IMG/VR virus record: IMGVR_UViG_3300014205_005221
Location: 64,001 to 128,000 of that record
Source: a virus
Lineage: Duplodnaviria; Caudoviricetes
Reading direction: 5' to 3' (one strand)
DNA length: 64,000 nucleotides
The position numbers and the translations under genes are program-made. Below the pieces are notes generated by a model that had not been told where the DNA came from, searched no databases, and saw only the letters and a program-made list of their open reading frames with translations. This document shows positions 1,721 to 63,916 of the stretch, in pieces (the first letter of the stretch is position 1; each line of letters opens with the position of its first letter).

Positions 1721-1751
1721 GCTCTCCCAACCCCCTTCTGTTGCTTGTCTT

Positions 1752-2609
1752 CTACCCGAACACGAGCGACCACAGCGACGAATACAGACCCGGCCACCAC
1801 GCCAGCGCAACGAACGCCGTCACCACCCACGAGAACGTCCGCAGCTTCAGCTCCGCCCACTCCGAGGATCCGGTCGAGAGCAGCGCCGACTGAGGGCGGA
1901 CGTGGATCGGGTAGTACCGCTGCCCCCGGATCCGGATCGGCCACAGCAACGGCACGCCCGTCTTCGTCGCCGCGTCACCGAGTGAGTGCGCGAGCATGCC
2001 GACCGAAACCGACACACCGACACCGAGTCCGACAGCTGGAGCGATCAGCTCGGAGGCGATCCGCAACGGCTCCTCGGCCGTCGTCGTCACGAGCCACCAG
2101 AGCGCCGTACCCGCGACCAACGCCAGCACGAGACCGCGTACCTCTCCGAGCAGCCACGAGCCCACCAGCGCCACGATCAGGCCCGCCACGACAGCCAGCG
2201 CGAGAGCGGGCCAGCGGGTCGCGAGCAGATACGAGACCCACCCGAACACCAGCCCGGATACCACCGCCGAGATGCCGAAATGACTCAGCCCGCGATGTCC
2301 ACGGAAGTCGCCCTCAGATACGTCGCGCGAAGTTGCTGACATGTCGAACACCCAACACGACATGCGATGCACGAACAGATGCACCGCGCCGCTGATCAGC
2401 CCCATCGATCGGGTGGCCGTCGAATTGTGGTGATCGAGGTCGGGCCACAACGCCGCGCGCCCTGCCAGCCACGCAATCAGCAGTGCTCCCGCGACCGCGA
2501 GCACGCACGCCCACACAGGCGCGGGTGCAGGCACGACATACGGGCGCACACACGCAGCCACGCACGCGCCTGCACAGATACCAGTGACGCGATGCGTCAA
2601 GCCTATCAT
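1752..2609 (-). CDS. Membrane metal-dependent hydrolase (YdjM/LexA-binding family-like)
   Basis: N-terminal TH, PDLDH, HRGLSH and HSLGD motifs with several TM helices; start at MIGLTH 7 nt after GGGTATGA. Confidence 0.8.
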   Translation of the reverse strand: MIGLTHRVTGICAGACVAACVRPYVVPAPAPVWACVLAVAGALLIAWLAGRAALWPDLDHHNSTATRSMGLISGAVHLFVHRMSCWVFDMSATSRDVSEGDFRGHRGLSHFGISAVVSGLVFGWVSYLLATRWPALALAVVAGLIVALVGSWLLGEVRGLVLALVAGTALWWLVTTTAEEPLRIASELIAPAVGLGVGVSVSVGMLAHSLGDAATKTGVPLLWPIRIRGQRYYPIHVRPQSALLSTGSSEWAELKLRTFSWVVTAFVALAWWPGLYSSLWSLVFG

Positions 2610-2698
2610 GACGAAGTCATACCCGTCACCCACAGCACCCGATGATGTCCTGCACAAAAGGGGGTCTGGGGGAAAAGTATGTCTTACAGGTCAGAAGG

Positions 2699-2740
2699 CC
2701 GCAGCCCTGTCCTGTGCACAGTGCTAGGACAGGGCTGCGG
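2699..2740. repeat. 15-bp inverted repeat after traB (terminator and/or part of clt)
   Basis: ccgcagccctgtcct (2699-2713) / aggacagggctgcgg (2726-2740). Confidence 0.75.
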
Positions 2741-2763
2741 AATCCTCGTGGACAGCAAGGATG

Positions 2764-4770
2764 TCACTTAGAGCTGTCAACGGCAGACTGAGTGGACAGG
2801 AACCGCGTGAGGACGTAATTGGTCCCCTCACCCCCCGGCTGAGAGATCAGACCCTTGTCGATCCACGTCTTCTTTTCACGGTGGAACCACGAATTTCCGC
2901 GATCGGCCGCCTCGCGCAGCTCCTTGGCTGCAGCTCCGGGCAACCCACGCTGTTCCAACATTGCGAACACCGCCGCCTCACCCTGCGGAAGATCCGCCAG
3001 GCGCTCCGCAGCCGTGCGCGGCTCCTGCGCAGGCACCAGAGGCGTGGGCTGGGCAGCACCCTGTCCGGCAAGGCGAGCATGGTGACGCGCGATCTCCGCC
3101 ATGGACACATCCGGGCCGGTCAGGTCGTAAGCCGGGATCGGATCCGGAGTGATGTCAGTGACCGTCGCACCCTCATCCTCGGAATCAGACATGTCCGCCT
3201 CCTCATCTCCATCACCGTATCGAGCTGCACACCGCGCGGCGTAGAGCGGCGACACCGAGCACGCCGCGTTCCGAGATCCCTCATCAAGAGGCAACCCCGG
3301 TGCCCGTACCGCCAACACCATCTCCACCATCTCATCGGTGACTCGGTAATAGCGCAGCGGCATGCCCGTCCACCTGTCACGATCCTGCACATAGCAAGTG
3401 CCCGGCTGCGAGGACGGAATCAGGTTTGCCCCGACCTTCCGATTCGGGATGATGTAGGACTCGTGCGACTCCGCCTCGGTGCGGAAACAGATCCGCTGAT
3501 TGAGACGGTCACGGAACTGGCTCGTCCGTGTCGCCTCCAGAGTCGGGTTCTGTGTCGCGCCATTGACCGACATACCGAGAGCACGACCGGTGGTCGCCAG
3601 CCGGACGAGAACTTCCTCCACCCGGCGCATGGCCTTGTGGTCACGACCGTTGGATGCCGCCACCATGCGGTGCAGCTCGTCGATCCATACGAACAGCAAC
3701 GGAGCGGTGGGAGAGACCGGCCACGCCTTGCGGCCCGCGCGAGTGTTCTCCTCACCGCGATACGTCATGATCGCGTCGAGCGCCTGCAGCGACTCATCAA
3801 TGTCCTCAGGACGAGTGATGAGGTTGTCCATGATCGCGTCGAACGGCGCGATCTCCATGCCGTCCTTGAGGTCGTAACCCCACTGGGTGCCATCCGAACG
3901 ACACGAGATGTCGAGGATGTGCAGGGTCAGACCGCCGGACTTACCCGAGCCCTGCGAACCGCCAAACAGCTTGTTGACTACAGCGTTGATGTCACGCTCG
4001 TAGTATGGGATGTAGGCGATCTTGCCGTCTTCCTGGATACCCACCGCGCACGGGACGTCCACCGACAGATCTCCGCCGTCGTCGCCCTGCTGCGGACCCG
4101 GCCACTCGACAGCCTCGGTGATTGGGTTGTCCAGGAACGACATGTAGTCGACACGGTTGGTGTCACGGTTGTGCTTGACCAGACGCAACGTGCCCTCGGG
4201 AAGGCCCATCGCGCCCTCCAGCTGTTCGCGACGGTCCAGAACCTGCTTCACCGTTGTCGTGCCGCGCTCCCACACCAGGAAGCCCGCCTCGTTACCGTTT
4301 GGGCTCTTCTCCAAGATGTGCCGATTCGTCATGCCCAGCCCGAAATTGGCCGCGATCTCCGACCAGCCCCGCAGGTCATCCTCCAGATGCACCTGGGTGC
4401 GCTTGAACCGCGACGACCACCAACCCATGCCCAACAGGTGTAGGCCGATGACCCACCAGAACATGACGACCGCCCACTCCGACAGCGTCGTCGTCTGCCA
4501 CAACCACCACACCCACGCAGCCGACGCTCCCGCGCACACGAGCGCGTATCCGAGTCGGGTCCATCCGGTCAACCGGGTGAGCGTCCACATGAGCACGAGC
4601 AAGCCGATGACGGCGAGCGCGATCCACACCTCGGAGTGGTCACGCAGCGGCCAGGACAGATGTCCGAGCAGCAACACCACAAGCCCGGCGTAGTAGGGAC
4701 CAAGTCCCAGCCGCTGGGCATGGCGACGCTCCCACCAGGACATGTCCTCTTGGACTAAACGTCGCGTCAT
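2764..4770 (-). CDS. traB: TraB-type FtsK/SpoIIIE conjugative dsDNA translocase
   Basis: N-terminal TM helices, Walker A GSQGSGKS, DLKDG, Walker B WIDELH, ATQNP, C-terminal winged helix; this architecture is typical of actinomycete plasmid TraB. Confidence 0.85.
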   Translation of the reverse strand: MTRRLVQEDMSWWERRHAQRLGLGPYYAGLVVLLLGHLSWPLRDHSEVWIALAVIGLLVLMWTLTRLTGWTRLGYALVCAGASAAWVWWLWQTTTLSEWAVVMFWWVIGLHLLGMGWWSSRFKRTQVHLEDDLRGWSEIAANFGLGMTNRHILEKSPNGNEAGFLVWERGTTTVKQVLDRREQLEGAMGLPEGTLRLVKHNRDTNRVDYMSFLDNPITEAVEWPGPQQGDDGGDLSVDVPCAVGIQEDGKIAYIPYYERDINAVVNKLFGGSQGSGKSGGLTLHILDISCRSDGTQWGYDLKDGMEIAPFDAIMDNLITRPEDIDESLQALDAIMTYRGEENTRAGRKAWPVSPTAPLLFVWIDELHRMVAASNGRDHKAMRRVEEVLVRLATTGRALGMSVNGATQNPTLEATRTSQFRDRLNQRICFRTEAESHESYIIPNRKVGANLIPSSQPGTCYVQDRDRWTGMPLRYYRVTDEMVEMVLAVRAPGLPLDEGSRNAACSVSPLYAARCAARYGDGDEEADMSDSEDEGATVTDITPDPIPAYDLTGPDVSMAEIARHHARLAGQGAAQPTPLVPAQEPRTAAERLADLPQGEAAVFAMLEQRGLPGAAAKELREAADRGNSWFHREKKTWIDKGLISQPGGEGTNYVLTRFLSTQSAVDSSK

Positions 4771-4786
4771 CGGCTTGCTCGCCTTC

Positions 4787-7393: not shown

Positions 7394-7845
7394 TTCACAG
7401 CATTCGCCGACAGCCGCTGGCGATCCAGCAGCAGCTCAGCGGTCTCGCAGATTTCCGACCAGTAGCGATCGACCAGAATCTCCGCGCGCGACGCCACGTA
7501 GCCGTAAGTGAAATCCGAGCCAGCCCGCAGGCTCTCGAACTCAGCATCATCTTCCGAGCACGACCTGTCGTGGCTCCACCAACTCATGTCGCCAAGATCG
7601 CGCTGACGAAGAAACTTCATCTCCGCCGGACGAGACACCGCCAGAATGGTCAGATGCGCGAGCAGCGTGTCCTCAGAACCATCCCAGGCCCGGACCAGCC
7701 ACGCATTGCCGCGAGTCACCCGACCCGACCAGAAACCGGTAATCAGCTCCACGCGCTCCAGGTCGATGCCGAGCCGCTTCGTCGCGACCGCATGCGCAGC
7801 TTCATGTACCGCGAGAACCCGCGCGGTGCGGTCATCTTCGTGCAT
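7390..7845 (-). CDS. HExxH zinc metallopeptidase-like protein (M41/M50-like)
   Basis: AVHEAAHAV, SEDD, and an M41-like C-terminus AELLLDRQRL. Confidence 0.7.
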   Translation of the reverse strand: MHEDDRTARVLAVHEAAHAVATKRLGIDLERVELITGFWSGRVTRGNAWLVRAWDGSEDTLLAHLTILAVSRPAEMKFLRQRDLGDMSWWSHDRSCSEDDAEFESLRAGSDFTYGYVASRAEILVDRYWSEICETAELLLDRQRLSANAVK

Positions 7846-7871
7846 GTTTCGCTTCTACCCTTCAGAGACGC

Positions 7872-11396: not shown

Positions 11397-11427
11397 AGTA
11401 CTCCATTCGAGAGGATCCCAGCGGCTT

Positions 11428-11787
11428 CTACCCGCGCAGCTCGATACGGGTGTCCACTCCGTAATCGAATGTAGGAATGCCTGCCTTACGGGCGTGGCGG
11501 GCACAATGTCCCGTCCCGGAACGCCACTTCAGGGCGAACGCCAGACACGCATCCGCGCCCAGCGAAATCATGTGCAGGTTGCGCAGCAGCGGAGTCTCAA
11601 AATCGGCGGCGGGGTAACTTTCCACCGGACCGAACGGCTCCCACATCTGGGCAGCTGTCTTGTCCAAACCTTCCGCGTTACCATGCACAAGGATGTCACC
11701 GCGCTGCATGTGTGCGAGAATGGCCTGAACAATCAGCGCAGGATCAGCCCAACTCTGAGAACCGGTGAACAGAAAGCGCCTCGTCAT
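11428..11787 (-). CDS. SLOG-family (DUF2493/YspA-like) protein
   Basis: FTGS, LVHGNAEGLD, RN..M, SGTGHC motifs. Confidence 0.75.
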   Translation of the reverse strand: MTRRFLFTGSQSWADPALIVQAILAHMQRGDILVHGNAEGLDKTAAQMWEPFGPVESYPAADFETPLLRNLHMISLGADACLAFALKWRSGTGHCARHARKAGIPTFDYGVDTRIELRG

Positions 11788-11802
11788 ACGACGCTTCTAC
11801 CC

Positions 11803-13058: not shown

Positions 13059-13066
13059 CGCAAGTC

Positions 13067-13459
13067 CTACCCAACCGGTGCAGAAACGGGCACCAGCAAC
13101 GGAAGAATCAACGTCTGGGCTGCACCAAACTTATCACCCTGCCCGACGAACCACGCCTGGGCTCGCTCCCGGGAAAGGAAGGGACCGAACCCCATCGACA
13201 TGGTCTCAGAAAAGACAGCCACCACAACGAACTTGTCGGCGCGATCATCTGATTCCTGATCTGCATGGTAGAACACCGACTTCCCCCCGGCCTGCGGCGG
13301 AGACGAATCCGGATGTGCAAGCAGGAAATCTCGCACCTCATGCTTGCTCGGGTCAATGAAAGCTACACGGGGGTTAAACCACTCCAACAACCGCTCACGA
13401 TCCTCAAACGGACCGTACGCGTGCAAAATAGACTGATGTCTCCACACCAACACGCGCAT
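13067..13459 (-). CDS. Hypothetical protein
   Basis: TGATG overlap; internal repeated GPF motif. Confidence 0.6.
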   Translation of the reverse strand: MRVLVWRHQSILHAYGPFEDRERLLEWFNPRVAFIDPSKHEVRDFLLAHPDSSPPQAGGKSVFYHADQESDDRADKFVVVAVFSETMSMGFGPFLSRERAQAWFVGQGDKFGAAQTLILPLLVPVSAPVG

Positions 13460-13764
13460 CAGATCGGCCTCCACTTCTGCACCGAACGCCACGCCACACG
13501 AGACGGTGCAGCACCCGGCTGGTCGTGGAACAGGAAAAGATCCACAGCCTGAGCCACGCTGCCGTACACCGCCTCGCCAGAGAGCCAGCGGCCATCGGGA
13601 GTCTGAATCTGCAGCACGAACTGCAGATCGCCCTCTTCATCGTCGCAGAACTGACAGTTGCCGGACTGCACACGCTGCAAATTCTCCACCGGGCAGCCAG
13701 TCTTACCGTATTTGCATCCGTGCAGCGCACAACAGTGCGTGATGTGAATTCCAGTGTTCGCCAT
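13459..13764 (-). CDS. Hypothetical Cys/His-rich protein
   Basis: HCC..HGCKYG...CP motif; leaderless start. Confidence 0.65.
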   Translation of the reverse strand: MANTGIHITHCCALHGCKYGKTGCPVENLQRVQSGNCQFCDDEEGDLQFVLQIQTPDGRWLSGEAVYGSVAQAVDLFLFHDQPGAAPSRVAWRSVQKWRPI

Positions 13765-13766
13765 GT

Positions 13767-14051
13767 CTACCTTCTACCCTGAAACGGGCTGTAGTGATAG
13801 ATCATGCCTAAAAGCCAACTACGTCCCACCGGATTGGCTGAATGAACACGAACCACACGCGGCCAGCGATCCTCATGCTCACAGAGCCAGAGAACCACCG
13901 GCCGCGTCGTGTCCTCGCCGCCCAGGTCGTGATCAAGCGACATCTCCGAGACCGCACAGATACTCAGAGTTTCGATTGCCGCACTCGAACTCAGCGCCCA
14001 CGCCCACTCGGAGCCCGGAGGCTTGCGAATGTCATCGACCCAGAGCTTCAT
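13767..14051 (-). CDS. Cyclic-phosphate-processing receiver-like domain protein
   Basis: KLWVDDIR, SLDHDLG and VHSANPVG motifs. Confidence 0.75.
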   Translation of the reverse strand: MKLWVDDIRKPPGSEWAWALSSSAAIETLSICAVSEMSLDHDLGGEDTTRPVVLWLCEHEDRWPRVVRVHSANPVGRSWLLGMIYHYSPFQGRR

Positions 14052-15375: not shown

Positions 15376-15391
15376 ATTGCTTACCGCTGTT

Positions 15392-15775
15392 CTACCCCGA
15401 CATGCGTGAAAGCAATTCCGCTGCTACCGCAGCCGTGCGCTTAGCCGGTGTCGACGGCTTTAATCCGAGCGCGATGTTGATGGTCACCAGCGCCTCACCA
15501 AGACCCTCATTCGCCTCGATAAGCTGGCAAATGACGTCATTCTCGTTCGGAGACTGGCCCATCGAGGCAAACAGATTCGGAGCGCCAGTAGCCAGGATCG
15601 TGCACTCCCGGCACCAATGAGACTGGTCTTCCGGAGTGCCGACAAACGCCTCTGACCAGCCGCCGTACTCCACCGCCTGCCGCCACGTCTCCGCAGACGT
15701 AGCACCGGTGCCGCCCGCCCACACATCACGGCAGTGGTCACACACGAACTCGTAGAGATGCCTGCGCACCAACAT
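15392..15775 (-). CDS. Hypothetical Zn-finger protein
   Basis: CDHC...HWCREC; TGATG start. Confidence 0.6.
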   Translation of the reverse strand: MLVRRHLYEFVCDHCRDVWAGGTGATSAETWRQAVEYGGWSEAFVGTPEDQSHWCRECTILATGAPNLFASMGQSPNENDVICQLIEANEGLGEALVTINIALGLKPSTPAKRTAAVAAELLSRMSG

Positions 15776-17107: not shown

Positions 17108-17114
17108 AAGCTAG

Positions 17115-19015: not shown

Positions 19016-19050
19016 CAGGATGTCCTCTCGATGTTCGCCATGCAGCTGTC

Positions 19051-20367: not shown

Positions 20368-20376
20368 GTCGGTGTT

Positions 20377-20939: not shown

Positions 20940-20948
20940 GTCAGCCTT

Positions 20949-51171: not shown

Positions 51172-51186
51172 CGATTTCCCCGTTCC

Positions 51187-52193
51187 TTACTCTTTTGGCT
51201 TAGGAGGAAGAATCATCCGTCCACCAAAGATTGCAGTGAGCTTCTCGAAGCTCCCCGCCTTGGGATCCGCCGAACTACCGACAGATTCCTCGTACGGGGC
51301 GTTGCCATTCTGTTTTGCTTTCTCCTCGGCAATGAGGTGATCAGCAGTGGGCTCTTTCGATTTACGCTTGTTAGACATAATCGAAAGCTCTGCTGCCGCC
51401 TTGCTCAGCTCCTTAGCTCCATCACTAGACATCGAAAGATTCGCTAAAAAGAATGCCAGCATCTTGGTCTGCCACTCGATGTAGGTACGTTCTCGATAAT
51501 CTGTAAGTGACTTTCGCTCGTTGATCGTCTCTACAATCTGCCTCAGTCGGCAGATTCGGAGGTCGAGGACTTCTTCGTCTTTCCAGCCGTACTCCGACGA
51601 GACGAGGTCTGCGGCTCGGGCGTAACTACCGACAATTCTGGGGTCGGCGAACCGGACTCCGGCTGGGAGTTCGAAGTCTGCGAGTTTGTCAATTGGCCGG
51701 TCTTCGTCATCATCGTGAAGGCCGCGCTCAGTCGTTTTCCCAGGGCCGCCAGGTCATTCTTCTCGCGCATGATGACGGCCTCGATGATCGAGATCGCGTC
51801 CTCAGGCTCGGGGTTGAACAGCTCCTCGGACAGCTTGCGACGCAGATCGTCGTTCGTCTCACGCTGCTTCTTGTCCGCACCCGGGGTCAGGCCATCGGGC
51901 TCGACCACCGACATGATGAACTCGACGGCCTCATCCTCTGCCTCGGGCAGCGCGATGAGCGCGATGGCGAGCAGCTGCGTACCGAACGCCTCCGCCCGCT
52001 CCTCATCACCGGAGATCGACATGGCCTCGCGCAACATCGGGATGTACGCGGCACCACCACGGGTGATGATGCGCAGCAGCCGGAACAGCTGGCGCAGCTT
52101 CAGCCGCTGAATCTCCACCTTGGAACCGGAGACAAGCTCAATCAGCTTGCCCTCCGGGTCCAGACGGTCGGTCTCAGAGTTCGGTAACGACAC
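51187..52193 (-). CDS. Frameshifted tail assembly chaperone (gpGT-like), -1 shift at GGGAAAA 51735-51741
   Basis: In-frame CTG GGA AAA; the -1 frame is open from there through SEYGWKDEEVLDL to the stop at 51187. Confidence 0.85.
51543..52193 (-). CDS. Tail assembly chaperone (gpG-like)
   Basis: Between the major tail and tape measure genes. Confidence 0.85.
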   Translation of the reverse strand: MSLPNSETDRLDPEGKLIELVSGSKVEIQRLKLRQLFRLLRIITRGGAAYIPMLREAMSISGDEERAEAFGTQLLAIALIALPEAEDEAVEFIMSVVEPDGLTPGADKKQRETNDDLRRKLSEELFNPEPEDAISIIEAVIMREKNDLAALGKRLSAAFTMMTKTGQLTNSQTSNSQPESGSPTPELSVVTPEPQTSSRRSTAGKTKKSSTSESAD

Positions 52194-52229
52194 AGGTGCT
52201 CCTTGGCATCAGAAAACGACTAACAGGGA

Positions 52230-52778
52230 TCAGGTGACCGGCGAGTTCACCAGACGACCGATGGCCTTCTCGGGCAGAGGGTCGCCCTGCTCATCGACCG
52301 GGGACACAACCGCACGACCGGAGTAGTTCAGGACGAGACCGTCCTTGTAGGTCGGACCGTCGAAGCTGATCGGCATGAACTGCACGCGGAACAGCACGAT
52401 GTCCATCGTCCGCACCGCACCGGCCGAGTCCTTCGACGGAATGCGGATCAGAACCGGGCGCGGGGCCTGGTTCAGCGAGGACTGGGTCCACAGCGGCATG
52501 CTCCACTCGTCACCGGTGGAGGTGACAGGGGCTCCGGTCAGCAGCGAAATCACGTTGAACGGGACGTAGCCCGAGCTGATCGTGACCTCGGCGTAGTTGA
52601 ACCAGAACCAGTTCGACAGCACCGCGTCATCACCGGTGTTGTCGTAGCTGTCAGAGTCAACCGACACAGAGCCTTCACGAACACCGTAGATGTCCGCAAG
52701 CTCCGCACCAGTCTGACCATTCAAAATTGCTGCATGGCTGACCGAAAATGCTTCAAAGATCCCGGTTGCGGGCATCAA
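52230..52778 (-). CDS. Major tail (tube) protein
   Basis: Position upstream of the chaperone; beta-rich 182 aa. Confidence 0.8.
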   Translation of the reverse strand: MMPATGIFEAFSVSHAAILNGQTGAELADIYGVREGSVSVDSDSYDNTGDDAVLSNWFWFNYAEVTISSGYVPFNVISLLTGAPVTSTGDEWSMPLWTQSSLNQAPRPVLIRIPSKDSAGAVRTMDIVLFRVQFMPISFDGPTYKDGLVLNYSGRAVVSPVDEQGDPLPEKAIGRLVNSPVT

Positions 52779-52857
52779 AGATTCCCTTCATAAAATCCCG
52801 GGGCATCTCCGTGCTTCGTGGGATCGCTTCACTGGCTACGGGAATCTTCGGCTGCCT

Positions 52858-53682
52858 CTACTCGGCAGAACCGCGCGCAGCCTTCCGGCGAGAAGCCGCG
52901 TAAAGACGGTTACACTCTCTGCAAGTGCCATTCTTAGACAAAGAGTTCTCTAAATCCAAAAAATGTCCGTCTTCGCATACAATTCTGTCCAAGCCCTGCT
53001 GATAGCAAATTTCAGCACGACGAACAAAAAAAGTATCACGAGACTTAATTACCTTGTCTCGCTCACACTGCTTGCACACAGCAGTGCCATTCTCATTAAT
53101 TCGAATACCAACTTCCGCAAGCACGTGTCCATGATTACAAGTCTCACGCTTGGTCAGCGACAACTTCACCCGGCCACGCCGAGCACTCTCTTCAGACGTG
53201 GTCCCATCCAGGTGCGCGGGATTCACGCACCGACGAATACCGCAAATGTCATTGAGATGGTCCACCACCTCACCCTCCTCAAGAGGGCGGTTGTAGAACT
53301 CGAAACTCCAGCGGTGCGCGCCGACCGTCTTGTACTTGCCGTCGACCTTGACCGAAAACCTGCCGTAACCCTGATGCGTCAGGTGACCGGTCCAATACCA
53401 ATGGCCGTCGCGGTCCTTCTCCACCCGGCGAAGGAACTTGGTCTCCAGGTCTTCATTACGCGGCCCGTACTCACGGCGGGGAACATGCTCGTACGCCACG
53501 GGCACCGCGTAGATGATCACCGAACCACGGGGAGTGCGGGCGACCTCCAGACGCGGAGACTTCAAGCCCGGCTCGGTGATCTGCTTGCGGCGCCCGTCCT
53601 CGTAGAAACGACGCGGCCTGGTCGGGATCCCCATCTGACGAATCAGAACGTCGCGCAGCGGGACGCCAGCGATCTCAATCAA
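52858..53682 (-). CDS. HNH homing endonuclease
   Basis: WTG...GYGRF...AHR...VDH..C..RRCVNPAHL, CxxGH Zn motifs. Confidence 0.88.
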   Translation of the reverse strand: MIEIAGVPLRDVLIRQMGIPTRPRRFYEDGRRKQITEPGLKSPRLEVARTPRGSVIIYAVPVAYEHVPRREYGPRNEDLETKFLRRVEKDRDGHWYWTGHLTHQGYGRFSVKVDGKYKTVGAHRWSFEFYNRPLEEGEVVDHLNDICGIRRCVNPAHLDGTTSEESARRGRVKLSLTKRETCNHGHVLAEVGIRINENGTAVCKQCERDKVIKSRDTFFVRRAEICYQQGLDRIVCEDGHFLDLENSLSKNGTCRECNRLYAASRRKAARGSAE

Positions 53683-53725
53683 CTTACACTCCTCTAGGTA
53701 TGACTACTTTGTCGTACCCAAAAGA

Positions 53726-53995
53726 TCAGCTGTCGCGGTCGACTACCACAGATTCAATGAGGTCACCGGAGATGTCGAAACGGTGCAACACGAGGGCAAC
53801 GTCCTTGCCCTCGGAACGCATCCGGCGGCGGCAATCCTGGCACGCAAGCTCAATAAGATTGTCTGTGGTGACAGGAGCAGTCTGACCAGCAAGTCGGAGT
53901 TTGGCGAAAAGCTTCCGGGGGCCGGTGGGACACCGAAGCTCGACCTCGCGTGCGCTATCCACCGACATGCCCCAGACTTCGACCGAAGCCGTCAT
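53726..53995 (-). CDS. Hypothetical protein
   Basis: ELRCP...LFAK...IELACQDC. Confidence 0.65.
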   Translation of the reverse strand: MTASVEVWGMSVDSAREVELRCPTGPRKLFAKLRLAGQTAPVTTDNLIELACQDCRRRMRSEGKDVALVLHRFDISGDLIESVVVDRDS

Positions 53996-55188
53996 GATGA
54001 CAATCCGTCTAAGGCGCCGCGACGCAGCATATCCTGGAACTGCGCTGACTCAGGCTTCTCCGGTTTGCGGCACATCCGCATACGTGTAGCGACCTCGACT
54101 CCTCGACTGCCCGCAACAGTTTCCAAGCGATCACAGAACCGCTCCAGGACCCGGGTCCAGCTCACCATGTTCGGGAGCGTGCGAGCGGCAACCTCGCCGC
54201 GACGCGCCGCCTCAGAACGATTGTTGTAGATACCGAGCATGATCTCCGCGAGATGGTCCTCATCCGCGATAGCCGCTCGCGCCTTGAGACCGGAGAACGT
54301 TTCCTTCATCTCGAACCGCAGCGGATAGGCGTACTGATCGCTCATCCACTGCGCGTGCCCGCCCACGTTGGTCGCCACGACCGCACCACCGGTGGAGGCG
54401 AACTCGATGGCCGGTCGGTTCTTTCCCTCGCCCCAGGACGGCGCCAGCAGCACGTGCGACTCACGGTAGAGCGCGTGAACGGCCTCGACCGACCACATCT
54501 CCCCGATGATCTTCAGACCCGAACACCAGGACTCCATGGCCGGATGCAGACCGGGATACGTGGTCTTGAGGACCAGCTGCGCATCTTGCAACTCGCCCGC
54601 GTCGCGCAGCTTCTTGAACGAATTGATCGACACCCACGGGTTCTTGCGTGACGACAGAGCGCCCAACATGAGAAAACGGAACGGGGACGCATTCCAGTCA
54701 CGCTGATGCGGAGGAAGTGTCGTCACCCCACCCTGAAGTACAGAAACTTTGTCGTGGTACGGGCTCAGAGCTGACTTGGACACTTCGTCGTAGGCGAACA
54801 CCGCGTCGAAGTGTGTCAAAGCCTTGCCCAGGTGATCGGTCACCCGAAACGCGTGCTCGCAGTTCGCCTGATTGACCTCATCGACGTTGTCGAGAGAATC
54901 CCACTCCCACATCGACCACGCCACCGACACCGTCGACACCGAGTACAACCCCGCCGACTCAGGAGAGCGCGCCAGCTCCTGGGGGCAGCGATGCGAAATC
55001 AACAAATCCACATGCTCGGGAATGGGCTTGGTGATTAGGGCCGCGACATCCGCCGGGAGCGGGGGATGAACACCGGAAGGGTGCAGATACACATCCGCGC
55101 CCCACGCCATCAGCGCCTGAGCAAGTTCAATACCATCTGTGCCGTAACCTGTTTGACTGTTCACCGGGCACGACAAAAGTACCTTCAA
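53992..55188 (-). CDS. Glycosyltransferase (GT-B/GT4-like)
   Basis: TGYG, MWE, RKN, PSWGEG..PAIE...G..VVAT; TTG start after AAGGAG. Confidence 0.88.
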   Translation of the reverse strand: MKVLLSCPVNSQTGYGTDGIELAQALMAWGADVYLHPSGVHPPLPADVAALITKPIPEHVDLLISHRCPQELARSPESAGLYSVSTVSVAWSMWEWDSLDNVDEVNQANCEHAFRVTDHLGKALTHFDAVFAYDEVSKSALSPYHDKVSVLQGGVTTLPPHQRDWNASPFRFLMLGALSSRKNPWVSINSFKKLRDAGELQDAQLVLKTTYPGLHPAMESWCSGLKIIGEMWSVEAVHALYRESHVLLAPSWGEGKNRPAIEFASTGGAVVATNVGGHAQWMSDQYAYPLRFEMKETFSGLKARAAIADEDHLAEIMLGIYNNRSEAARRGEVAARTLPNMVSWTRVLERFCDRLETVAGSRGVEVATRMRMCRKPEKPESAQFQDMLRRGALDGLSS

Positions 55189-55201
55189 GGTATCTCCTTG
55201 C

Positions 55202-55726
55202 TCAACCTGTATTAAGCCCGTAATGGCATTGAAGACGTACGCCTTCCGGCCAGTCCGAGACCTCATAGACGTCGGGGAGCGACATCAGTTGCGAGCCCCA
55301 TACTCGCAATCCCGGATCTCCCGAAGCGCTGCCCCACACTTCGGAGAAACCATCAACCCGATGCAACACTGTCTGGAAATGCTCCCAGACCATACGAGCC
55401 CTAGATTCCGCATCATCTCGCAGCGGGGGCCCATTCAAGGACTCGCGCGAGCAATCCGCGTAAATCTCCAGCGACAGCCGTGGAAACCGAGCTGTGTTGT
55501 GCTGATTAGGACGTGTCCACGCGCCCTCTTCACGTAAAACTGCAGCGGCTTTCCCCGTTCCCTCCACCACTGCCTGAAGCTTGCGAACGAACAGCCAGAC
55601 TCCAACAGGCGCAGACCCCACGGGGGAGGCGAGCGCACTCACCACACCGGGAACGGTCGACAATTTGCGATGAGCGGCGACTGCGAGATCATTGCGCGCC
55701 AACAGAGGAAACAGCGAACTTGTCAC
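55202..55726 (-). CDS. Tail terminator / completion protein
   Basis: Position after the neck gene. Confidence 0.6.
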   Translation of the reverse strand: MTSSLFPLLARNDLAVAAHRKLSTVPGVVSALASPVGSAPVGVWLFVRKLQAVVEGTGKAAAVLREEGAWTRPNQHNTARFPRLSLEIYADCSRESLNGPPLRDDAESRARMVWEHFQTVLHRVDGFSEVWGSASGDPGLRVWGSQLMSLPDVYEVSDWPEGVRLQCHYGLNTG

Positions 55727-56097
55727 TGCAACCTCGCACGGACTGTCGCACCCATAGCGTGCAAAAAATCATCGCGGAGCAGATCGAGGTTGCTCATCGC
55801 GTCGTGCTCCTCGCCGCGCCCGAACTCCTCTTTGGCGTACCTGACGATGGGGTGCGCGTAACCCGGGGCAGGCCCGCCATACGAGATCTCTCCCGACCAG
55901 CTGCTCTCATCTCGACGGTTCGAGACGCGACCTGAGCCCTTCAACGAGCCGGTGATGACGTGGACACGGGCCTGAGTCTCCTCAAAGCCCTTTGCCAGCA
56001 CCTGCGACAGCTCCGCCAGCGTCTCCACGCCGGGACCTTCGTGGGCGTCGAGAGCGTCGAGCCACTCCGACACATCGACATAGAGATAGACCGACAT
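55723..56097 (-). CDS. HK97 gp10-like neck protein
   Basis: HVITGSLKGSG...YA.EEFG motif. Confidence 0.75.
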   Translation of the reverse strand: MSVYLYVDVSEWLDALDAHEGPGVETLAELSQVLAKGFEETQARVHVITGSLKGSGRVSNRRDESSWSGEISYGGPAPGYAHPIVRYAKEEFGRGEEHDAMSNLDLLRDDFLHAMGATVRARLQ

Positions 56098-56495
56098 CAG
56101 AGATTCACCGCCACAGCACCCTGGGCCACAGAAGGGGCCACCTCGATCGCTTGTCCCTCAAGGTGATGGAAATTCCGCATGTTGATAGCGCGATCGGGAG
56201 CGGTGCGGACCTCCCAGGTGCCCACCACCGGACCCGCCACGCACTCCATGCGATCACCGGGACGCAGCTCGGTGCCCGGGGCACACCAGTATGTCGCCAC
56301 CCGATCGGGGGCACGACCGGCTTGCGCGGGCATGGGGACGTCCTTGCCGGGACGGTAGAAGCCGACCTCGATCCGGCACTGCACCCGCTCCATGCCCGCC
56401 ACCACGACCCAGCTGGTCGCGAGCACACCGTCGGTGAACACGCCCTGAGAACGTGTCACTCGCACGTATGTCGGCATAAGTCGATACGGGATCAC
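56097..56495 (-). CDS. Head-tail stopper / closure protein
   Basis: LRPGDR...W.V...HHLE motif; position. Confidence 0.7.
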   Translation of the reverse strand: MIPYRLMPTYVRVTRSQGVFTDGVLATSWVVVAGMERVQCRIEVGFYRPGKDVPMPAQAGRAPDRVATYWCAPGTELRPGDRMECVAGPVVGTWEVRTAPDRAINMRNFHHLEGQAIEVAPSVAQGAVAVNL

Positions 56496-57031
56496 CGGTA
56501 CATGCCTCCACCGGACTCCAGCGGAGGACCCTGCCGGAAGTTCTCCGTATCCGCCGGACCCGTCAAGATCGGACGGCCACCGGCCCAGCCGATGTCACCA
56601 GGACGATCGAAGGCCGAGATGGACGCGTTGGAGATCGTCGACGTGAACGCGTCCGCCGCTGCATCGAGCAGCTTGGACACCGCGACGTCGAACCACGACA
56701 CACCCGACGGGATCCCGGCCAGCACATTCTGCTCAGCCAGGGTGTAGGAATACGAACCGATGTTCTCCGTCTTGAACGGAGAGAACCTCATGTCGCGATG
56801 GTTGTTGCCTTCAAAGATGGCCTCCGCCATCGCCAACACGCCGCGACGAGCAGTGCGCCCGAGCAGCGTGTTGGCCGGTGGCAGCTCCGTGATGGAGACA
56901 GACGACAGCGCAAGCTCCAGCAGATCACCAGCCTGCGCCAGAGCCTCCATCACGAACGGACGGTCGTAGTGCTCCGGGCTTTGACCGGTGAAGTTGGAAA
57001 GATCAATTTCCGTAAGCCCGGTATCCACCAC
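56492..57031 (-). CDS. Head-tail adaptor protein
   Basis: ENIGSYSY motif; position. Confidence 0.75.
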   Translation of the reverse strand: MVDTGLTEIDLSNFTGQSPEHYDRPFVMEALAQAGDLLELALSSVSITELPPANTLLGRTARRGVLAMAEAIFEGNNHRDMRFSPFKTENIGSYSYTLAEQNVLAGIPSGVSWFDVAVSKLLDAAADAFTSTISNASISAFDRPGDIGWAGGRPILTGPADTENFRQGPPLESGGGMYR

Positions 57032-57040
57032 AACCTCCGA

Positions 57041-57799
57041 TTAGGTCAGCTTGGTCTTCAAGGTCGCCAGCTGCTGAATCGGACGTGCAACGCGGTTGCG
57101 ATTACGCTCGCGATCCGCTGCAGCGCCGTCCTTCCACGGCAAACCCGGCCATGGTCCATGTCCGAACTTGACCTGACCCCAACGGCGAAGCTGCTCACCA
57201 TCGGTCAGCAGCACCCACGACTTACCGGTGCGATCACAGGTGTCGCGCCACGCTGGAGTGCCCACCTCGAACTCGATCTCCTGGCCGACATACCAGACCT
57301 GACCGTTGGAAGTGAACCCGTCCTCGCGGACGTGAATGATCACCGTGTCGCCGGGAGCCGGGTCGATCGGAGGCGGGCCCACAGCCCACGACGCGACCTC
57401 CGCACCAGAGCCGGACAGAGCGGCCCGTGCTGCCGCCAGTTCGGCTTCCAGACGCAGCACCAGCTCGGTCTGGGCGGTGTTAGGGACCGGACCCGCCGGG
57501 AGGTTGTCCGAGCCAACGGTGTCGTTCGCCAAATTCTCCACATTGGTGTTGGAGATGACCACAGACTCCGACACATTCGAAGTAGTGACCGGCGGGACGT
57601 TGATGCCCGGGGTCGCATCGATCACCGGCTCGGGGTCCGGCGGAACGATGTAGGCGGACAGATCATCATCGGGCTCAGCCGACGCCACCTCATCGGGGGC
57701 ATCCGCAGGAGGGATCGCTCCCTTGGTCTTAGGAGTGCGCCCCGATGGGGGTGGCGGGCTGGACCGACGGATAGCAGGCTTCTCGTCTTCAGATGGCAT
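57041..57799 (-). CDS. Hypothetical protein (probably virion-associated)
   Basis: AAGGAG RBS; Pro-rich N-terminus with a folded C-domain. Confidence 0.7.
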   Translation of the reverse strand: MPSEDEKPAIRRSSPPPPSGRTPKTKGAIPPADAPDEVASAEPDDDLSAYIVPPDPEPVIDATPGINVPPVTTSNVSESVVISNTNVENLANDTVGSDNLPAGPVPNTAQTELVLRLEAELAAARAALSGSGAEVASWAVGPPPIDPAPGDTVIIHVREDGFTSNGQVWYVGQEIEFEVGTPAWRDTCDRTGKSWVLLTDGEQLRRWGQVKFGHGPWPGLPWKDGAAADRERNRNRVARPIQQLATLKTKLT

Positions 57800-57819
57800 T
57801 GAATGCTCCTTGAGCTAAC

Positions 57820-58479: not shown

Positions 58480-58480
58480 C

Positions 58481-60217: not shown

Positions 60218-60405
60218 GCCTTCTTGAACAGATCCCAGTTCACCCGCTGCCGATCGATCCATGGCGCCGCGTCCCAGGCGTCCACGATCTGCTCGTACAA
60301 CTCTTCACACGAGTTCAGATCTTCAGCTCGCTCTGCGGCGTCGTACTTCTCATTCAACTCCAGCCACTCCTGCAGAGACGGCGGGACTGCCAAATCAGCG
60401 CTCAT
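60193..60405 (-). CDS. Hypothetical protein
   Basis: Start 7 nt after GGGTAGAA. Confidence 0.6.
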   Translation of the reverse strand: MSADLAVPPSLQEWLELNEKYDAAERAEDLNSCEELYEQIVDAWDAAPWIDRQRVNWDLFKKAWKERTKP

Positions 60406-60414
60406 GCAGGTGTT

Positions 60415-60621
60415 CTACCCGCTAGTGAGCTGCCAGAGCCCCCACAAAGACAGGCCAAAGGCCACCACCGTGATCACCGGCAGCAAAACCCACGCCCACT
60501 GCCCCGCCTCATCCGAGATGCAGAACAGAATCACCCACAACATCCACACGAGGAACGCCGCAGCGACCGCACCAAAAAAGACTCCGAGCAACTCCAAAAA
60601 CGGAGGAAGCGTGATCGTCAC
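60415..60621 (-). CDS. Small two-TM membrane protein
   Basis: Hydrophobic hairpin. Confidence 0.6.
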   Translation of the reverse strand: MTITLPPFLELLGVFFGAVAAAFLVWMLWVILFCISDEAGQWAWVLLPVITVVAFGLSLWGLWQLTSG

Positions 60622-62106: not shown

Positions 62107-62571
62107 TCATTCCTTAGGAGGATCGCAGAACTCCGGAGGCGGGTCCGTCACCCACGCCGGAGTGATATCCCGGTCCTCGAACTGAGGATTGCGCGTCCAC
62201 ACGCCGCCGGGCTTACGCTCCCACGCCTGCTCGATGTAGCACCCGACCGACGACATCGACTCGCCCGCACCACGACACTCATGCCACGGCGGATCACCGT
62301 AGCGGAAGTTCTCCGTCAGGTAATCGAGGTTCCACTCCGGCGGAAGCTCATCGCCTTCACGGAAGCTCCGGTACCGGTCATAGCGTGTCCAGCCCTCACC
62401 GACCGACATGCGCAGAGCACACGCCTGACACTCGATGCGAGCCAGCACGGCCCACGTGTCGTAGACGCCCAGCATCCGAGGATGGAAAGCCGCGTAACGC
62501 GGAACCCCGTAGCCATCGTGCCACAACGGGGTTCCGGCAATCTCGCGAATATCCTGATAGTCAGGAAGCAT
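62107..62571 (-). CDS. Hypothetical protein
   Basis: GVPRY..FHP, CQAC and YGDPP motifs; leaderless start. Confidence 0.65.
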   Translation of the reverse strand: MLPDYQDIREIAGTPLWHDGYGVPRYAAFHPRMLGVYDTWAVLARIECQACALRMSVGEGWTRYDRYRSFREGDELPPEWNLDYLTENFRYGDPPWHECRGAGESMSSVGCYIEQAWERKPGGVWTRNPQFEDRDITPAWVTDPPPEFCDPPKE

Positions 62572-62580
62572 GTCAGAGTC

Positions 62581-63021
62581 CTACCCCGGGAGAAGACGCC
62601 TTGAGAACAAGTCCTTCAGCTCAAGGCGCGCCTGCGCTTTCCACTGCTCCTCGGTGCACGGGGAATACTCACCCCACACCTTCTGACCGAGCAGCCGACA
62701 ATCGTAGTCCGCCTCGGTGGGATCGTTGTCGATCGAATAGCCCTCCCGCTCCTGATAGCTCGGAGCGGGATCCCGGAACGGGCAGTCAGGACAGAACGAA
62801 CCCGGACCGTAGTCCGGGGACATCGTCGAACCGTTGAGCAGCCACTGCAAAGCCGGATAGAAATGCTCGTCAGCAGAGTCCGCCATCTCAGCGAGAGTAT
62901 CGCCGTAGAGAGACAGCGTGCACTCAGAGCACGACAGTCCCCAAAACACCTGACCGGTGTAACGGCGGTAGGAACGCAGCTTCGAGCGGTGCACCAACGG
63001 CATCGCCCCGCGCTCAGACAT
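62581..63021 (-). CDS. Hypothetical Cys-rich protein
   Basis: CSEC and CPDCPF motifs. Confidence 0.6.
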   Translation of the reverse strand: MSERGAMPLVHRSKLRSYRRYTGQVFWGLSCSECTLSLYGDTLAEMADSADEHFYPALQWLLNGSTMSPDYGPGSFCPDCPFRDPAPSYQEREGYSIDNDPTEADYDCRLLGQKVWGEYSPCTEEQWKAQARLELKDLFSRRLLPG

Positions 63022-63250
63022 CAGAAAGTCCCGGAACCTTTACGCCCCAGCACCTAGCTACCTTGCGAAGCACCGTCGTCGCATAAATGACGGACTCCTG
63101 CGTGTTGTACCCCGCCTGCGAGTAAATACGAATCAGATGATGAACTGCCTCGTGGAGAGCGTCTTCATCCACCGAAACCGGCAGACACACCATGACATCC
63201 TCGACGTTCTCCACGACTACACCTCCGGAGGGAACGCCACGTCCCAACAC
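63014..63250 (-). CDS. Hypothetical protein (start uncertain)
   Basis: Co-oriented packing. Confidence 0.5.
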   Translation of the reverse strand: MLGRGVPSGGVVVENVEDVMVCLPVSVDEDALHEAVHHLIRIYSQAGYNTQESVIYATTVLRKVARCWGVKVPGLSDV

Positions 63251-63420
63251 GACGGGCAGATACCTGACATCAGCTGCTCACGACGGTCCACACTCAGATC
63301 ACTCAGAGCTTCCTGAATATGTGCACCGTGCTTCCACCGGTTGTACCCGATCTGATCGACCTCGAACTCGTCGACCTTGTGACACGTCGGGCACTCGGAA
63401 CTTACCAACAATACGGACAT
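63217..63420 (-). CDS. Small Zn-finger protein
   Basis: CPTC...IQEAL..LS...RE.LMSGICPSCWD. Confidence 0.7.
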   Translation of the reverse strand: MSVLLVSSECPTCHKVDEFEVDQIGYNRWKHGAHIQEALSDLSVDRREQLMSGICPSCWDVAFPPEV

Positions 63421-63421
63421 G

Positions 63422-63751
63422 TCACTTACCCACCGGACGCTTGCCTCCGCAAAACTGATCCCACTCGGTCATCCGCAGCAGCGGCGTCGCGCCACCACCG
63501 CTGTCGCTACGGCCCGACGACGGCGTGGCGAAACCCAGGCCATCGACACACACCTTGGCGATGTTCGGGTACAGGTCTGCGTTGCGATACACCTCGATGT
63601 AGTCCACGTCGCTAACCACATCGACCGGAGAGCCCTCGTGGCCGCCCCGGTCACCGAGCTGCTCCGCACACCCGGTCAGCAGCGCGAGCGACAGCCCAGC
63701 GCCGACCAGAACACCCACAACACGCTTAGTCCTCACGGGGATCCCTTTCAC
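63422..63751 (-). CDS. Lipoprotein
   Basis: Signal peptide with lipobox LTGC. Confidence 0.75.
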   Translation of the reverse strand: MKGIPVRTKRVVGVLVGAGLSLALLTGCAEQLGDRGGHEGSPVDVVSDVDYIEVYRNADLYPNIAKVCVDGLGFATPSSGRSDSGGGATPLLRMTEWDQFCGGKRPVGK

Positions 63752-63760
63752 AACGAAGTT

Positions 63761-63916
63761 CTACCGGGGACGACGCTTCTTGCGGTCGACCACAACAGGC
63801 TTAGCAATGCTCAAAATATGCTCAGAAAACTCGCACCCGGGACGGGCGCAGTACCGCATGCTGCGCTGGGTCAGAAACTTGCCGTGACCACACTCAGGGC
63901 ATTTCCATGCGCTCAC
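63761..63916 (-). CDS. Small Zn-ribbon protein
   Basis: GTG after GAGGAG: MSAWKCPECG...C..PGC. Confidence 0.5.
   Translation of the reverse strand: MSAWKCPECGHGKFLTQRSMRYCARPGCEFSEHILSIAKPVVVDRKKRRPR

Follow-up and report, generated by a model that had tools for sequence, protein, structure and literature searches.

A GGGTAG-R-A-S element of an actinobacterial phage: a probable −10-only promoter whose TAG also ends tightly packed upstream genes

T4 late promoters can overlap the ends of upstream genes. Leaderless mRNAs are common in mycobacteria (PMC4633059). In Streptomyces, mapped promoters of SigB homologues, of which Streptomyces coelicolor has nine, carry GGGTAT, GGGTAC or GGGTAG as the −10 hexamer, with GGG and the A at position 5 near-invariant, and a stretch of mostly 8 to 10 nt separates the hexamer from the transcription start site (PMC8346170). 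In work on the start-associated sequences (SAS) of cluster K mycobacteriophages, upstream stop codons were marked as falling within the element itself (PMC3203893, PMC11373665, PMC12699233).

Here we analyzed a 186-kb phage contig (C1) that includes a 64-kb window, whose coordinates are prefixed w where ambiguous. The host of the phage, represented by a MAG, is an actinobacterium. All genes in the window lie on the − strand, so the coordinates in the earlier sequence-only reading mark the low end of CTACCC, that is, of GGGTAG on the − strand. C1 was compared with its relatives G001/L083, L103, G002, G003 and G004; the closest show 70 to 83% DNA identity and have ~20% of genes in common. We assign a probability of about 0.75 to the reading in which GGGTAG-R-A-S is a −10-only phage promoter, probably read with the phage sigma factor g116, and the Gly-TAG gene ends are a by-product of this promoter and of compaction. 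Five lines of evidence support the promoter part: a host-like leaderless register, copies before tRNAs, absence from the head and tail modules, a match to SigB-type hexamers, and a group-3 sigma gene.

Register and gene-class specificity of the motif

On C1 the motif occurs in 83 to 91 copies on the gene strand versus 6 to 11 on the opposite strand. A PWM scan returned 83 and 6 sites, respectively, of which 52 and 0 have a start codon exactly at +1, and exact −15 to −7 placement before ATG or GTG is found for 52 or 53 copies. In this register GGGTAG occupies −15 to −10, GGGTA is invariant in the seed set, and A at −8 is invariant. The start codon begins at the 10th nucleotide after GGGTAG, with Y at −1 (pyrimidine in 36/38 sites) and R at +1, and the spacing to the start is rigid (9 nt, rarely 10). 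The base at −10, left unscored, was G in 66, T in 17, C in 7 and A in 1 of 91 sites, while −7 is C (22) or G (16) and never the T of the actinobacterial TANNNT. The pattern GGGTAGRAS-N5-Y-RTG was found 8 times in the window, versus 0.01 expected from shuffles, and 36 times on the gene strand of the whole contig with none on the opposite strand. A single occurrence in the other 2.7 Mb of the MAG indicates that the host genome does not use the motif. The host MAG shows a sharp leaderless TANNNT peak of its own, starting at −12 from start codons (60 versus ~2 background, among 1336 starts).

No −35 element (GTTT or GNNT, 12 to 16 nt upstream) was detected; there is no information content upstream of −20, and a k-mer search of −45 to −20 with variable spacing allowed gave no significant k-mer. 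Strong hairpins (−20 kcal/mol or stronger) precede only 6/83 copies, against a background of 3.5%, so the element is no composite promoter-terminator. In about half of the copies, AGGA or GGAG is so placed that Shine-Dalgarno pairing would also be possible, which counts against the promoter reading.

The motif is specific to one gene class, since the long tail module lacks any copy; neither the full tail interval (w31680-60415) nor the head module (C1:132078-161479) contains one. Ten copies lie ≤100 nt upstream of tRNA genes on C1 (9 by regex scan plus a GGGTAGGCG variant before tRNA-Gln). For five (Gln, Tyr, Asn, Glu, Pro) the gap to the 5′ end of the tRNA is 14 to 20 nt, with ~0.2 expected by chance, and all ten lack an in-register start codon 9 nt past the TAG. 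In G001 a copy lies 21 nt before tRNA-Tyr. Features of the window that show this distribution are as follows.

7843..7860 (−): motif-led start of a 151-aa gene, without a fused stop; a strong terminator-like hairpin lies directly upstream.
11785..11802 (−): motif-led start of a 119-aa gene; the upstream TGA ends right before GGGTAG.
13762..13779 (−): motif-led start of a 101-aa gene; the upstream gene passes through the motif and stops 7 nt later.
20937..20954 (−): motif GGGTAGAAG with the ATG of a 98-aa gene (20643-20939).
29476..29484 (−): motif copy without an in-register start, upstream of a gene run of SNF2 helicase, class II ribonucleotide reductase and sigma factor.
31982..57800 (−): tail module with a 3292-aa tape measure, a Dit-like protein and others; no motif copy.

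Upstream genes ending at the motif

The sequence-only reading had pointed out that many unrelated proteins end in Gly-TAG and had proposed a comparison with expectation. The enrichment is strong: 23 of 255 called C1 genes end in GGG-TAG versus 0.72 expected (p = 4.5e-27), 22 of 250 in the first gene set, and 10 of the 79 genes in the window. GGG makes up 13% of all Gly codons, yet it accounts for 24 of 43 terminal ones. Eleven GGG-TAG ends had been listed, and nine (1752, 11428, 13067, 15392, 19051, 20377, 24154, 60415 and 62581) proved to be in-frame stops of credible genes inside a motif copy. Of two variant ends named in the same reading, the one at 17115 was confirmed, and the one at 63761 closes a plausible small ORF. 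The junctions are listed below.

62569..62586 (−): fused junction; GGG-TAG in motif GGGTAGGAC terminates a 146-aa gene (62581-63021), and the ATG of a 154-aa gene (62107-62571) follows 9 nt past the TAG.
60403..60420 (−): fused junction; GGG-TAG in motif GGGTAGAAC terminates a 68-aa gene (60415-60621), followed by the ATG of the 70-aa gene g89 (60193-60405), whose G001 orthologue is also motif-led.
24154..24957 (−): sigma factor gene g116, 267 aa, ending Ala-Gly-TAG within motif copy 24151-24159.
20365..20382 (−): fused junction; GGG-TAG in motif GGGTAGAAC terminates an 88-aa gene (20377-20643), followed by the ATG of a 145-aa gene (19930-20367).
19039..19056 (−): fused junction; GGG-TAG in motif GGGTAGGAC terminates a 154-aa gene (19051-19515); from the +1 ATG runs a mini-ORF of only 8 codons, and its TGA overlaps the following ATG.
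15389..15397 (−): GGG-TAG in motif GGGTAGAAC terminates a 182-aa gene (15392-15940); an in-register start codon is missing, so the downstream gene is leadered.
13064..13072 (−): a 141-aa gene (13067-13492) ends GGG-TAG in motif GGGTAGGAC.
11425..11433 (−): GGG-TAG in motif GGGTAGAAG terminates a 119-aa gene (11428-11787) that precedes a DnaB-like helicase gene (9870-11396).
1749..1757 (−): GGG-TAG in motif GGGTAGAAG terminates a hydrolase-like gene of 301 aa (1752-2657); the gene that follows is served by a Shine-Dalgarno leader of its own.
17105..17121 (−): variant junction GGTATGAC; GTA-TGA within the motif terminates a 103-aa gene (17115-17426), with the in-register ATG of a 186-aa gene (16547-17107).
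63749..63766 (−): variant junction CGGTAGAAC; a plausible zinc-ribbon-like small ORF, left uncalled by the gene finder, ends CGG-TAG at 63761, with the in-register GTG of a 109-aa gene (63422-63751).

The remaining two listed sites failed for different reasons. At 31680..31685 (−) the Gly-TAG stop of an 84-aa gene is real and the GTG of the next gene overlaps the TAG; as a motif copy it was rejected, GGGTAGTGG being a chance hexamer. At 20949 the motif copy is genuine, and the proposed gene ending in LSG is unsupported (ORF ≤37 aa, no coding signal).

Across C1, stop, motif and start are fused into an 18-nt junction (GGGTAG, 9 nt, ATG or GTG) at 13 places, and at 8 further places the TAG serves as a stop with a non-coding RNA or a leadered gene as the downstream target. 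Where junctions are tight, the upstream gene ends on the motif TAG 21 times, ≤14 nt before it 12 times, and reads through 10 times; the balance between ending on the TAG and reading through deviates from the 1:2 expected from frame (p = 1.5e-4). Compaction, one of two explanations offered in the sequence-only reading, is thus the better one. Only ~1/4 of motif copies serve as stops, and 45 of the 66 TAGs with G at −10 are not stops; G is the majority base at −10 also among copies whose triplet is not a stop.

The excess follows the motif among relatives. GGG-TAG ends number 6 versus 0.47 expected in G001 and 11 versus 1.24 in G002, and only 3 versus 1.74 in G003 and 0 versus 0.11 in G004, where the motif differs or is absent. 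This restriction to motif-bearing genomes indicates that the Gly-TAG excess is a by-product of the motif. GTA-TGA endings are enriched in G001 and G002. The terminal Gly itself is labile and is not kept by orthologues: a fused stop is common to both members in none of the C1–G002 pairs and in 2 of 51 C1–G001 pairs, one of which is the sigma gene. In the g89/h8 pair, a replaced C-terminal tail continues to the TAG of the next promoter. The Gly-stop ends of ~23 unrelated upstream proteins are therefore real and incidental to tight gene packing.

A phage sigma factor and a proposed mode of transcription

The gene g116 encodes a divergent group-3 (FliA/WhiG, SigB/F-like) sigma factor. Its profile matches include the PHROG sigma factor (1.7e-9), FliA (2e-8) and sigmaF (4e-5) in the PDB, and the NCBIfam families FliA/WhiG (6e-17) and SigBFG (1.5e-7), with scores far below the curated family cut-offs. 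Homologues are present in four relatives, and G001 retains the Gly-TAG end. G001, L103 and G002 retain the motif; the sigma homologues of G003 and G004 are only 35 to 38% identical. Other points count against the overall reading. g116 is closer to FliA/WhiG, with its known −10 of GCCGATAA, than to SigB/F, and a motif copy is present upstream of the sigma gene itself. Recognition of a −35 element as well is usual for group-3 sigma factors, and −10 elements of the sigma-70 family normally carry a flipped-out T at −7.

We propose that GGGTAG-R-A-S acts as the −10 element of a phage-specific promoter that would not need a −35, and that the polymerase is probably the host core enzyme with g116. Transcription would start at the 10th base after GGGTAG, which at 52 or 53 copies is the A or G of ATG or GTG; because the start base would then be the first base of the start codon, the mRNAs from these copies are predicted to be leaderless. 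From the other copies, a short leader would precede a Shine-Dalgarno-led gene, or the product would be a tRNA or other non-coding RNA. Packing is so tight that the proposed promoter fills the entire gap between two genes. An upstream frame reaching the promoter TAG in phase would end there and gain a terminal GGG (Gly), the terminal Gly-TAG arising because the element contains TAG and genes are tightly packed. Mild selection may favor a stop at or before the promoter over read-through.

Other explanations and described systems

The motif might instead act in RNA, as a SAS-like start-associated translation signal or a 5′ tag read by a phage factor or small RNA, with the TAG overlap still incidental; we regard this as unlikely. 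It would fit the fixed position and the strong ATG preference (34/42 motif-led genes versus 100/209 others), as reported for SAS (PMC3203893), and the motif resembles the SAS core (GGGATAGGAG versus GGG-TAGGAG), with copies carrying G at −9 placing AGGA ~7 nt from the start. However, any Shine-Dalgarno-like 4-mer is missing from 13 of the 19 motif-led genes that carry A at −9, copies also occur ahead of tRNA genes and of leadered genes with their own Shine-Dalgarno, and the rigid spacing departs from the 3 to 9 bp of SAS (PMC3203893, PMC11373665). Moreover, the motif register equals the host leaderless −10 register, and SAS with up to 2 mismatches has no match on either strand of the contig. 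A hairpin at C1:9432-9494 carries an 8-nt contiguous complement (10/13 positions) to the commonest spacer version, but ~6 such complements are expected by chance in 186 kb.

Less probable still is that the junction is mainly a recombination joint, in which ~18-nt copies exchange promoter-plus-gene cassettes within and between phages in a PeSL-like manner and the TAG ends whichever gene lies upstream. The sequence-only reading had raised such micro-homology shuffling, with precedent in other phages (PMC2839356, PMC4122927). C1, G001/L083 and L103 have similar motif density in the block between head and tail, where almost all small genes differ, and the motif stays with its downstream gene even after relocation. 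In two of four comparisons (p = 0.009 and 0.005) motif junctions are commoner at synteny breaks than at conserved adjacencies; the other two are null, and at gene-junction resolution motif junctions are no more frequent at breaks than at accessory/accessory junctions generally, so that gene class explains the association. Because of the relatives' low identity and few common genes, breakpoints are not placeable to the nucleotide. In three relocated genes the 5′ similarity limit coincides with the motif in two cases and with the start codon in the third, but the 3′ limit never falls at the next motif. One relocated gene carries the motif in one phage and, in its place, a Shine-Dalgarno leader in the other. 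C1 contains neither motif-flanked paralogues nor tandem duplicates, and the shared sequence is merely 9 to 18 nt. Of the proposed cassette with a fixed stop, promoter and start junction, the promoter-like motif and the fused junctions hold, but the boundary is not symmetrical: a gene that moves takes along its own upstream promoter.

An RNA processing site, at which a phage or host endonuclease cuts ~9 nt after GGGUAG to free AUG-initial mRNAs and trim tRNA precursors, would also explain the strand specificity, fixed start distance and tRNA copies, but is very improbable, as no such nuclease was identified, the hexamer match and host register would become coincidences, and absence from the long head and tail operons is unexpected for a general signal.

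Read as a promoter, the motif shares TA at −12/−11, as does the host MAG, with actinobacterial leaderless promoters (TANNNT at −12 to −7, PMC4633059), but has S rather than T at −7, GGG at −15 to −13 and an invariant A at −8. With SigB/SigF-type promoters of Actinomycetota and Bacillota it shares the GGGTA(T/C/G) −10 hexamer, a case of the wider consensus GGG(T/A)A(T/A/C/G), alongside a group-3 sigma gene in the phage, and their start ~8 to 10 nt past the hexamer resembles the predicted phage start. Unlike them, it lacks a GTTT/GNNT −35, is conserved over 3 further bases (R-A-S) and would start at the start codon, and the phage sigma scores nearer FliA/WhiG, below family cut-offs.

Among phage elements, the SAS GGGATAGGAGCCC (PMC3203893, PMC11373665, PMC12699233) is likewise a short asymmetric repeat in one orientation, confined to non-structural genes, just upstream of mostly ATG starts, absent from the host and containing TAG. 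It differs in its 13-bp length, AGGAG core and variable spacing, many copies of the C1 motif having no Shine-Dalgarno-like core. It also lies downstream of separate promoters in ESAS, for which reason it is read as a translation signal, whereas the phage motif has no conserved element upstream and also precedes tRNAs. T4 late promoters (TATAAATA; gp55, PMC1524935) are similarly short, occur in many copies directly before genes and contain a stop triplet (TAA); they are −10-only and rely on a phage-encoded sigma-family protein, as proposed for the C1 motif. They differ in sequence, host phylum and sigma type, their mRNAs are leadered with Shine-Dalgarno, and they serve late structural genes rather than the non-structural genes served here. 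PeSL cassettes of T4-type phages (PMC2839356, PMC4122927) likewise place a repeated regulatory motif around small variable genes between conserved modules (hyperplastic regions). Those are composite promoter-plus-terminator units with breakpoints demonstrated in a 96%-identical pair, whereas the phage element spans 9 to 18 nt and is rarely accompanied by a hairpin.

C-terminal Gly-TAG and the motif behind it

C1, the phage contig that contains the window (186,050 bp, 60.4% GC), was binned with a 2.9-Mb metagenome-assembled genome (MAG); the window spans its positions 64001-128000. Judged by its primary sigma factor, the MAG belongs to Actinomycetota, with Nanopelagicales-type MAGs as its nearest relations. 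C1 is a phage: its 3292-aa ORF, from which an N4-like phage had been guessed, is a tape measure protein with actinophage relatives, which rules out that assignment. It also encodes a Dit-like tail protein, a major head protein and protease, two helicases (DnaB-like and SNF2) and a class II ribonucleotide reductase. A search of the phage for a T7-type RNA polymerase domain found none, and neither megablast of 14 kb and 10 kb against a phage collection nor exact-sequence look-up of the head protein returned a match. Genes were called with a purpose-written codon-usage gene finder, giving a first set of 250 and a later set of 255. All of the ~250 called genes lie on the - strand, so the coordinates in the sequence-only reading are the low ends of CTACCC, which is GGGTAG on the gene strand.

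That reading held that many unrelated proteins end in Gly-TAG, and this was confirmed: 23 of 255 C1 genes end in GGG-TAG, where codon and stop usage predict 0.72 (p = 4.5e-27; 22/250 in the first gene set), including 10 of the 79 genes in the window. On C1, GGGTAG itself is found at 80 places on the gene strand and at 19 on the opposite one, and the window has 27 copies versus 14.5 expected. The Gly-TAG proteins are mutually unrelated and include long or homology-supported ORFs, such as a sigma factor, a hydrolase, an endonuclease VII-like protein and a 731-aa protein. Eleven of the 13 sites originally listed hold as stated. Site 31680 is a true Gly-TAG stop, but its hexamer arises by chance and is not a motif copy. 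At 20949 the motif is real, but the ORF ending there has at most 37 aa and no coding signal; 63761, no more than plausible as a site, ends a plausible zinc-ribbon-like small ORF. The latter (window 63761-63950, - strand; C-terminus CPECG...CARPGC) falls below the gene-finder threshold and partially overlaps the frame of the preceding gene; it is probably a real small gene.

Aligned copies of the motif read GGGTAG-R-A-S, followed by five weakly conserved bases, a pyrimidine and ATG or GTG, with the start codon exactly 9 nt past the TAG in 38 of the 80 GGGTAG copies. A position weight matrix recovered 83 copies on the C1 gene strand versus 6 on the other, with a start codon at +1 in 52 versus 0. 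The full pattern occurs 36 times on the C1 gene strand, never on the opposite strand, once in the remaining 2.7 Mb of the MAG, and 8 times in the window (0.01 expected). Upstream of -20, no conservation or -35 element was found, even with variable spacing allowed. Position -7 is C or G; sigma-70-family elements carry T there. The motif is absent from the tail module (window 31680-60415) and the head module (C1:132078-161479). An antisense hairpin RNA against the motif was considered, but its contiguous complement extends to only 8 nt of one spacer variant.

The origin of the terminal glycine was addressed by rescoring the copies with position -10 left out. In the resulting 91 copies position -10 is occupied by G (66), T (17), C (7) or A (1). 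The TAG serves as a stop in only 21 of the 66, and G also predominates across the 70 copies without that role, so the TAG belongs to the signal and did not arise by selection for a stop. Where the junction is tight, upstream genes end on the TAG in 21 cases, at most 14 nt ahead of it in 12, and read through in 10; TAG and read-through are not in the 1:2 ratio expected from reading frame alone (p = 1.5e-4). Upstream genes are thus under pressure to end before or at the promoter, with the TAG as the last chance, which supports the proposal of compaction. The glycine itself is no conserved protein feature. Fused stops are shared by none of the orthologue pairs between C1 and the relative G002, and by 2 of 51 pairs between C1 and G001, one of these being the sigma gene. 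For the pair g89/h8 (window 60193-60405, - strand, in C1), the tail in G001 is another, longer one, reaching as far as the TAG of the next promoter.

Evidence for a promoter

The register of the motif, its tRNA-linked copies, the class of genes it precedes, known promoters and a phage sigma factor all point to a transcription signal. On this comparative evidence we put the probability that the motif is a promoter, with gene compaction explaining the fused stops, at about three in four. Counted from the start codon's first base, the TA of the motif occupies -12/-11. In the MAG contigs other than C1, TANNNT shows a sharp peak at -12 (60 versus a background of ~2 among 1336 candidate starts). TANNNT at -12 is the signature of actinobacterial leaderless promoters (PMC4633059), and from this peak a sizeable share of the host's own genes is probably leaderless. 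The MAG contains only a 16S rRNA fragment whose 3' end is missing, and with it the anti-Shine-Dalgarno sequence.

C1 carries 40 tRNA genes, compared with 19 in G001 and 7 in G002. Ten motif copies stand no more than 100 nt ahead of a tRNA gene, none with a start codon in the C1 register; in five the mature 5' end begins just 14 to 20 nt away (Gln, Tyr, Asn, Glu and Pro), and in G001 a copy lies 21 nt from tRNA-Tyr. Still others are followed by a gene that has a Shine-Dalgarno leader of its own, or by a ~58-nt conserved non-coding leader found twice in C1. The features concerned are:

C1:8988-9813, 25659-27310 and 170051-175117, - (gene) strand: three tRNA clusters, in which several tRNAs have their own motif copy
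Window 24095-24159 and C1:3480-3546, - strand: ~58-nt conserved non-coding stretch after the motif, beginning GGGTAGAACGGCT.CGCCATCTAG and including TGCTACACAGTA
Window 24154-24957, - strand: g116, a group-3 sigma factor gene with PHROG, PDB and NCBIfam matches

The ~58-nt stretch, whose second block is also kept downstream of the G001 sigma gene, may serve as leader to a non-coding RNA unit. Two other copies are followed by very short ORFs of 8 codons (window 19012-19041, - strand) and 6 codons (C1:13480-13510, - strand), the former ending in TGATG that overlaps the start of the next gene. These may be leaderless upstream mini-ORFs coupling translation into the next gene.

The mapped -10 hexamers of Streptomyces SigB-homologue promoters are GGGTAT, GGGTAC and GGGTAG; they hardly vary in GGG or A5, and transcription begins ~8 to 10 nt downstream of them (PMC8346170). 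The product of g116 matches a PHROG (1.7e-9), FliA (2e-8) and sigmaF (4e-5) in the PDB, and the NCBIfam models FliA/WhiG (6e-17) and SigB/F/G (1.5e-7), all below curated cut-offs; it is nearer FliA/WhiG than SigB/F. A genome-wide Pfam Sigma70_r2 scan missed it, leaving it visible only via these three resources. A peptide-pattern search for the gene in IMG/VR gave no match; direct search of the relatives' records yielded homologues in four of them (70, 46, 38 and 35% identity). The g116 factor, a divergent member of group 3, and a -10-only element carrying S at -7 form a candidate pair which, if confirmed, would widen the range of elements that group-3 sigma factors can read.

Relatives and the small-gene block

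The motif follows lineage. Its register is unchanged in G001 and L103, G002 has the version GGGTA-K-GA with the start one base nearer, G003 has a different junction motif, AGGGCAGGCAC, and G004 has none. Gly-TAG ends are in excess in G001 (6 versus 0.47 expected) and G002 (11 versus 1.24), with no excess in G003 (3 versus 1.74) or G004 (0 versus 0.11). The variant GGGTATGA places TGA in another frame, and GTA-TGA ends are correspondingly enriched (G001, 3 versus 0.26; G002, 6 versus 0.74). G003 is more distantly related (70% GC, with a sigma homologue at 38% identity); in it AGGGCAGGCAC, a hexamer without a stop triplet, stands 2 to 6 nt before ~20 start codons at variable spacing (L200-L201, + strand, ~5-35 kb), often after GTAAGCA or ACAAGC.

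About a dozen motif copies lie in one region that interrupts the structural genes:

Window 57800-64000 plus C1:128001-132100, - strand: block of ~24 small genes, flanked by the head protein gene and the tail genes; a nucleotidyltransferase gene and an endonuclease VII-like gene are among them

Its content is almost wholly different across three related phages. In G001 (86% head-protein identity) this position is taken by 16 small genes, one with a homologue in the C1 block and one more matching a C1 gene 48 kb away; in L103 (92% head-protein identity) the block genes are again mostly different. The motif and fused stops are kept in both. By this comparison, the block is a hyperplastic region of promoter-led genes, recalling the PeSL regions of T4-type phages (PMC2839356, PMC4122927).

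The sequence-only reading had offered a micro-homology joint for gene shuffling as the alternative to compaction. The 18-nt stop-promoter-start junction would then be a mobile cassette boundary: recombination between copies would transfer genes together with their promoters, both inside one phage and from phage to phage, and the in-frame TAG, with an AUG 9 nt behind it, would end the upstream gene and allow ribosomes on read-through transcripts to re-initiate. Inserted genes would be expressed at once, in both transcription and translation. We regard this as unlikely. On the 5' side, similarity reaches as far as the motif for two relocated genes and as far as the start codon for one more; on the 3' side it does not end at the next motif. 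A test for motif-mediated duplication found no motif-flanked paralogues in C1. Enrichment of synteny breaks at motif junctions gave mixed results, confounded by gene class. DNA identity to relatives is only 70 to 83% (74 to 83% for L103, which came from a metagenome scan), and a search with a gene inside the block for closer relatives suited to breakpoint mapping reached no more than 49% identity. In the comparison of C1 with G001 the motif is mostly retained by its downstream gene; between C1 and G002 most motif-led C1 genes have Shine-Dalgarno-led orthologues. Promoter turnover proceeds gene by gene.

Significance and known systems

The motif provides a clean, quantified case of a regulatory signal writing protein C-termini: ~9% of the phage's proteins end in a Gly with no role in the protein, a point relevant whenever small phage proteins are annotated or compared. 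For an uncultured group of 90 to 190-kb actinophages it can also aid annotation by fixing start codons, flagging leaderless genes and marking promoters of tRNA and non-coding RNA units.

SigB-type -10 elements share the hexamer and start distance of the C1 motif, which differs in having no -35. T4 late promoters are likewise -10-only and read through a phage sigma-family protein. PeSLs are a precedent for the shuffling idea, and mobile cassettes, if real, would be their actinophage counterpart. The start-associated sequences (SAS) of cluster K mycobacteriophages, none of which was found in a sequence search of the contig, share the layout of the C1 motif, including stop codons inside it, already marked by Pope et al. 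2011; unlike it, they vary in spacing, contain an AGGAG core and have separate promoters further upstream, and their function was still without experimental verification in 2025 (PMC3203893, PMC11373665, PMC12699233). With its rigid register and tRNA-linked copies, the C1 motif offers a useful contrast to these still unexplained elements. The Gly-TAG effect is a new, well-quantified case of an already-known type of overlap, and the promoter system is a new version of known promoter types.
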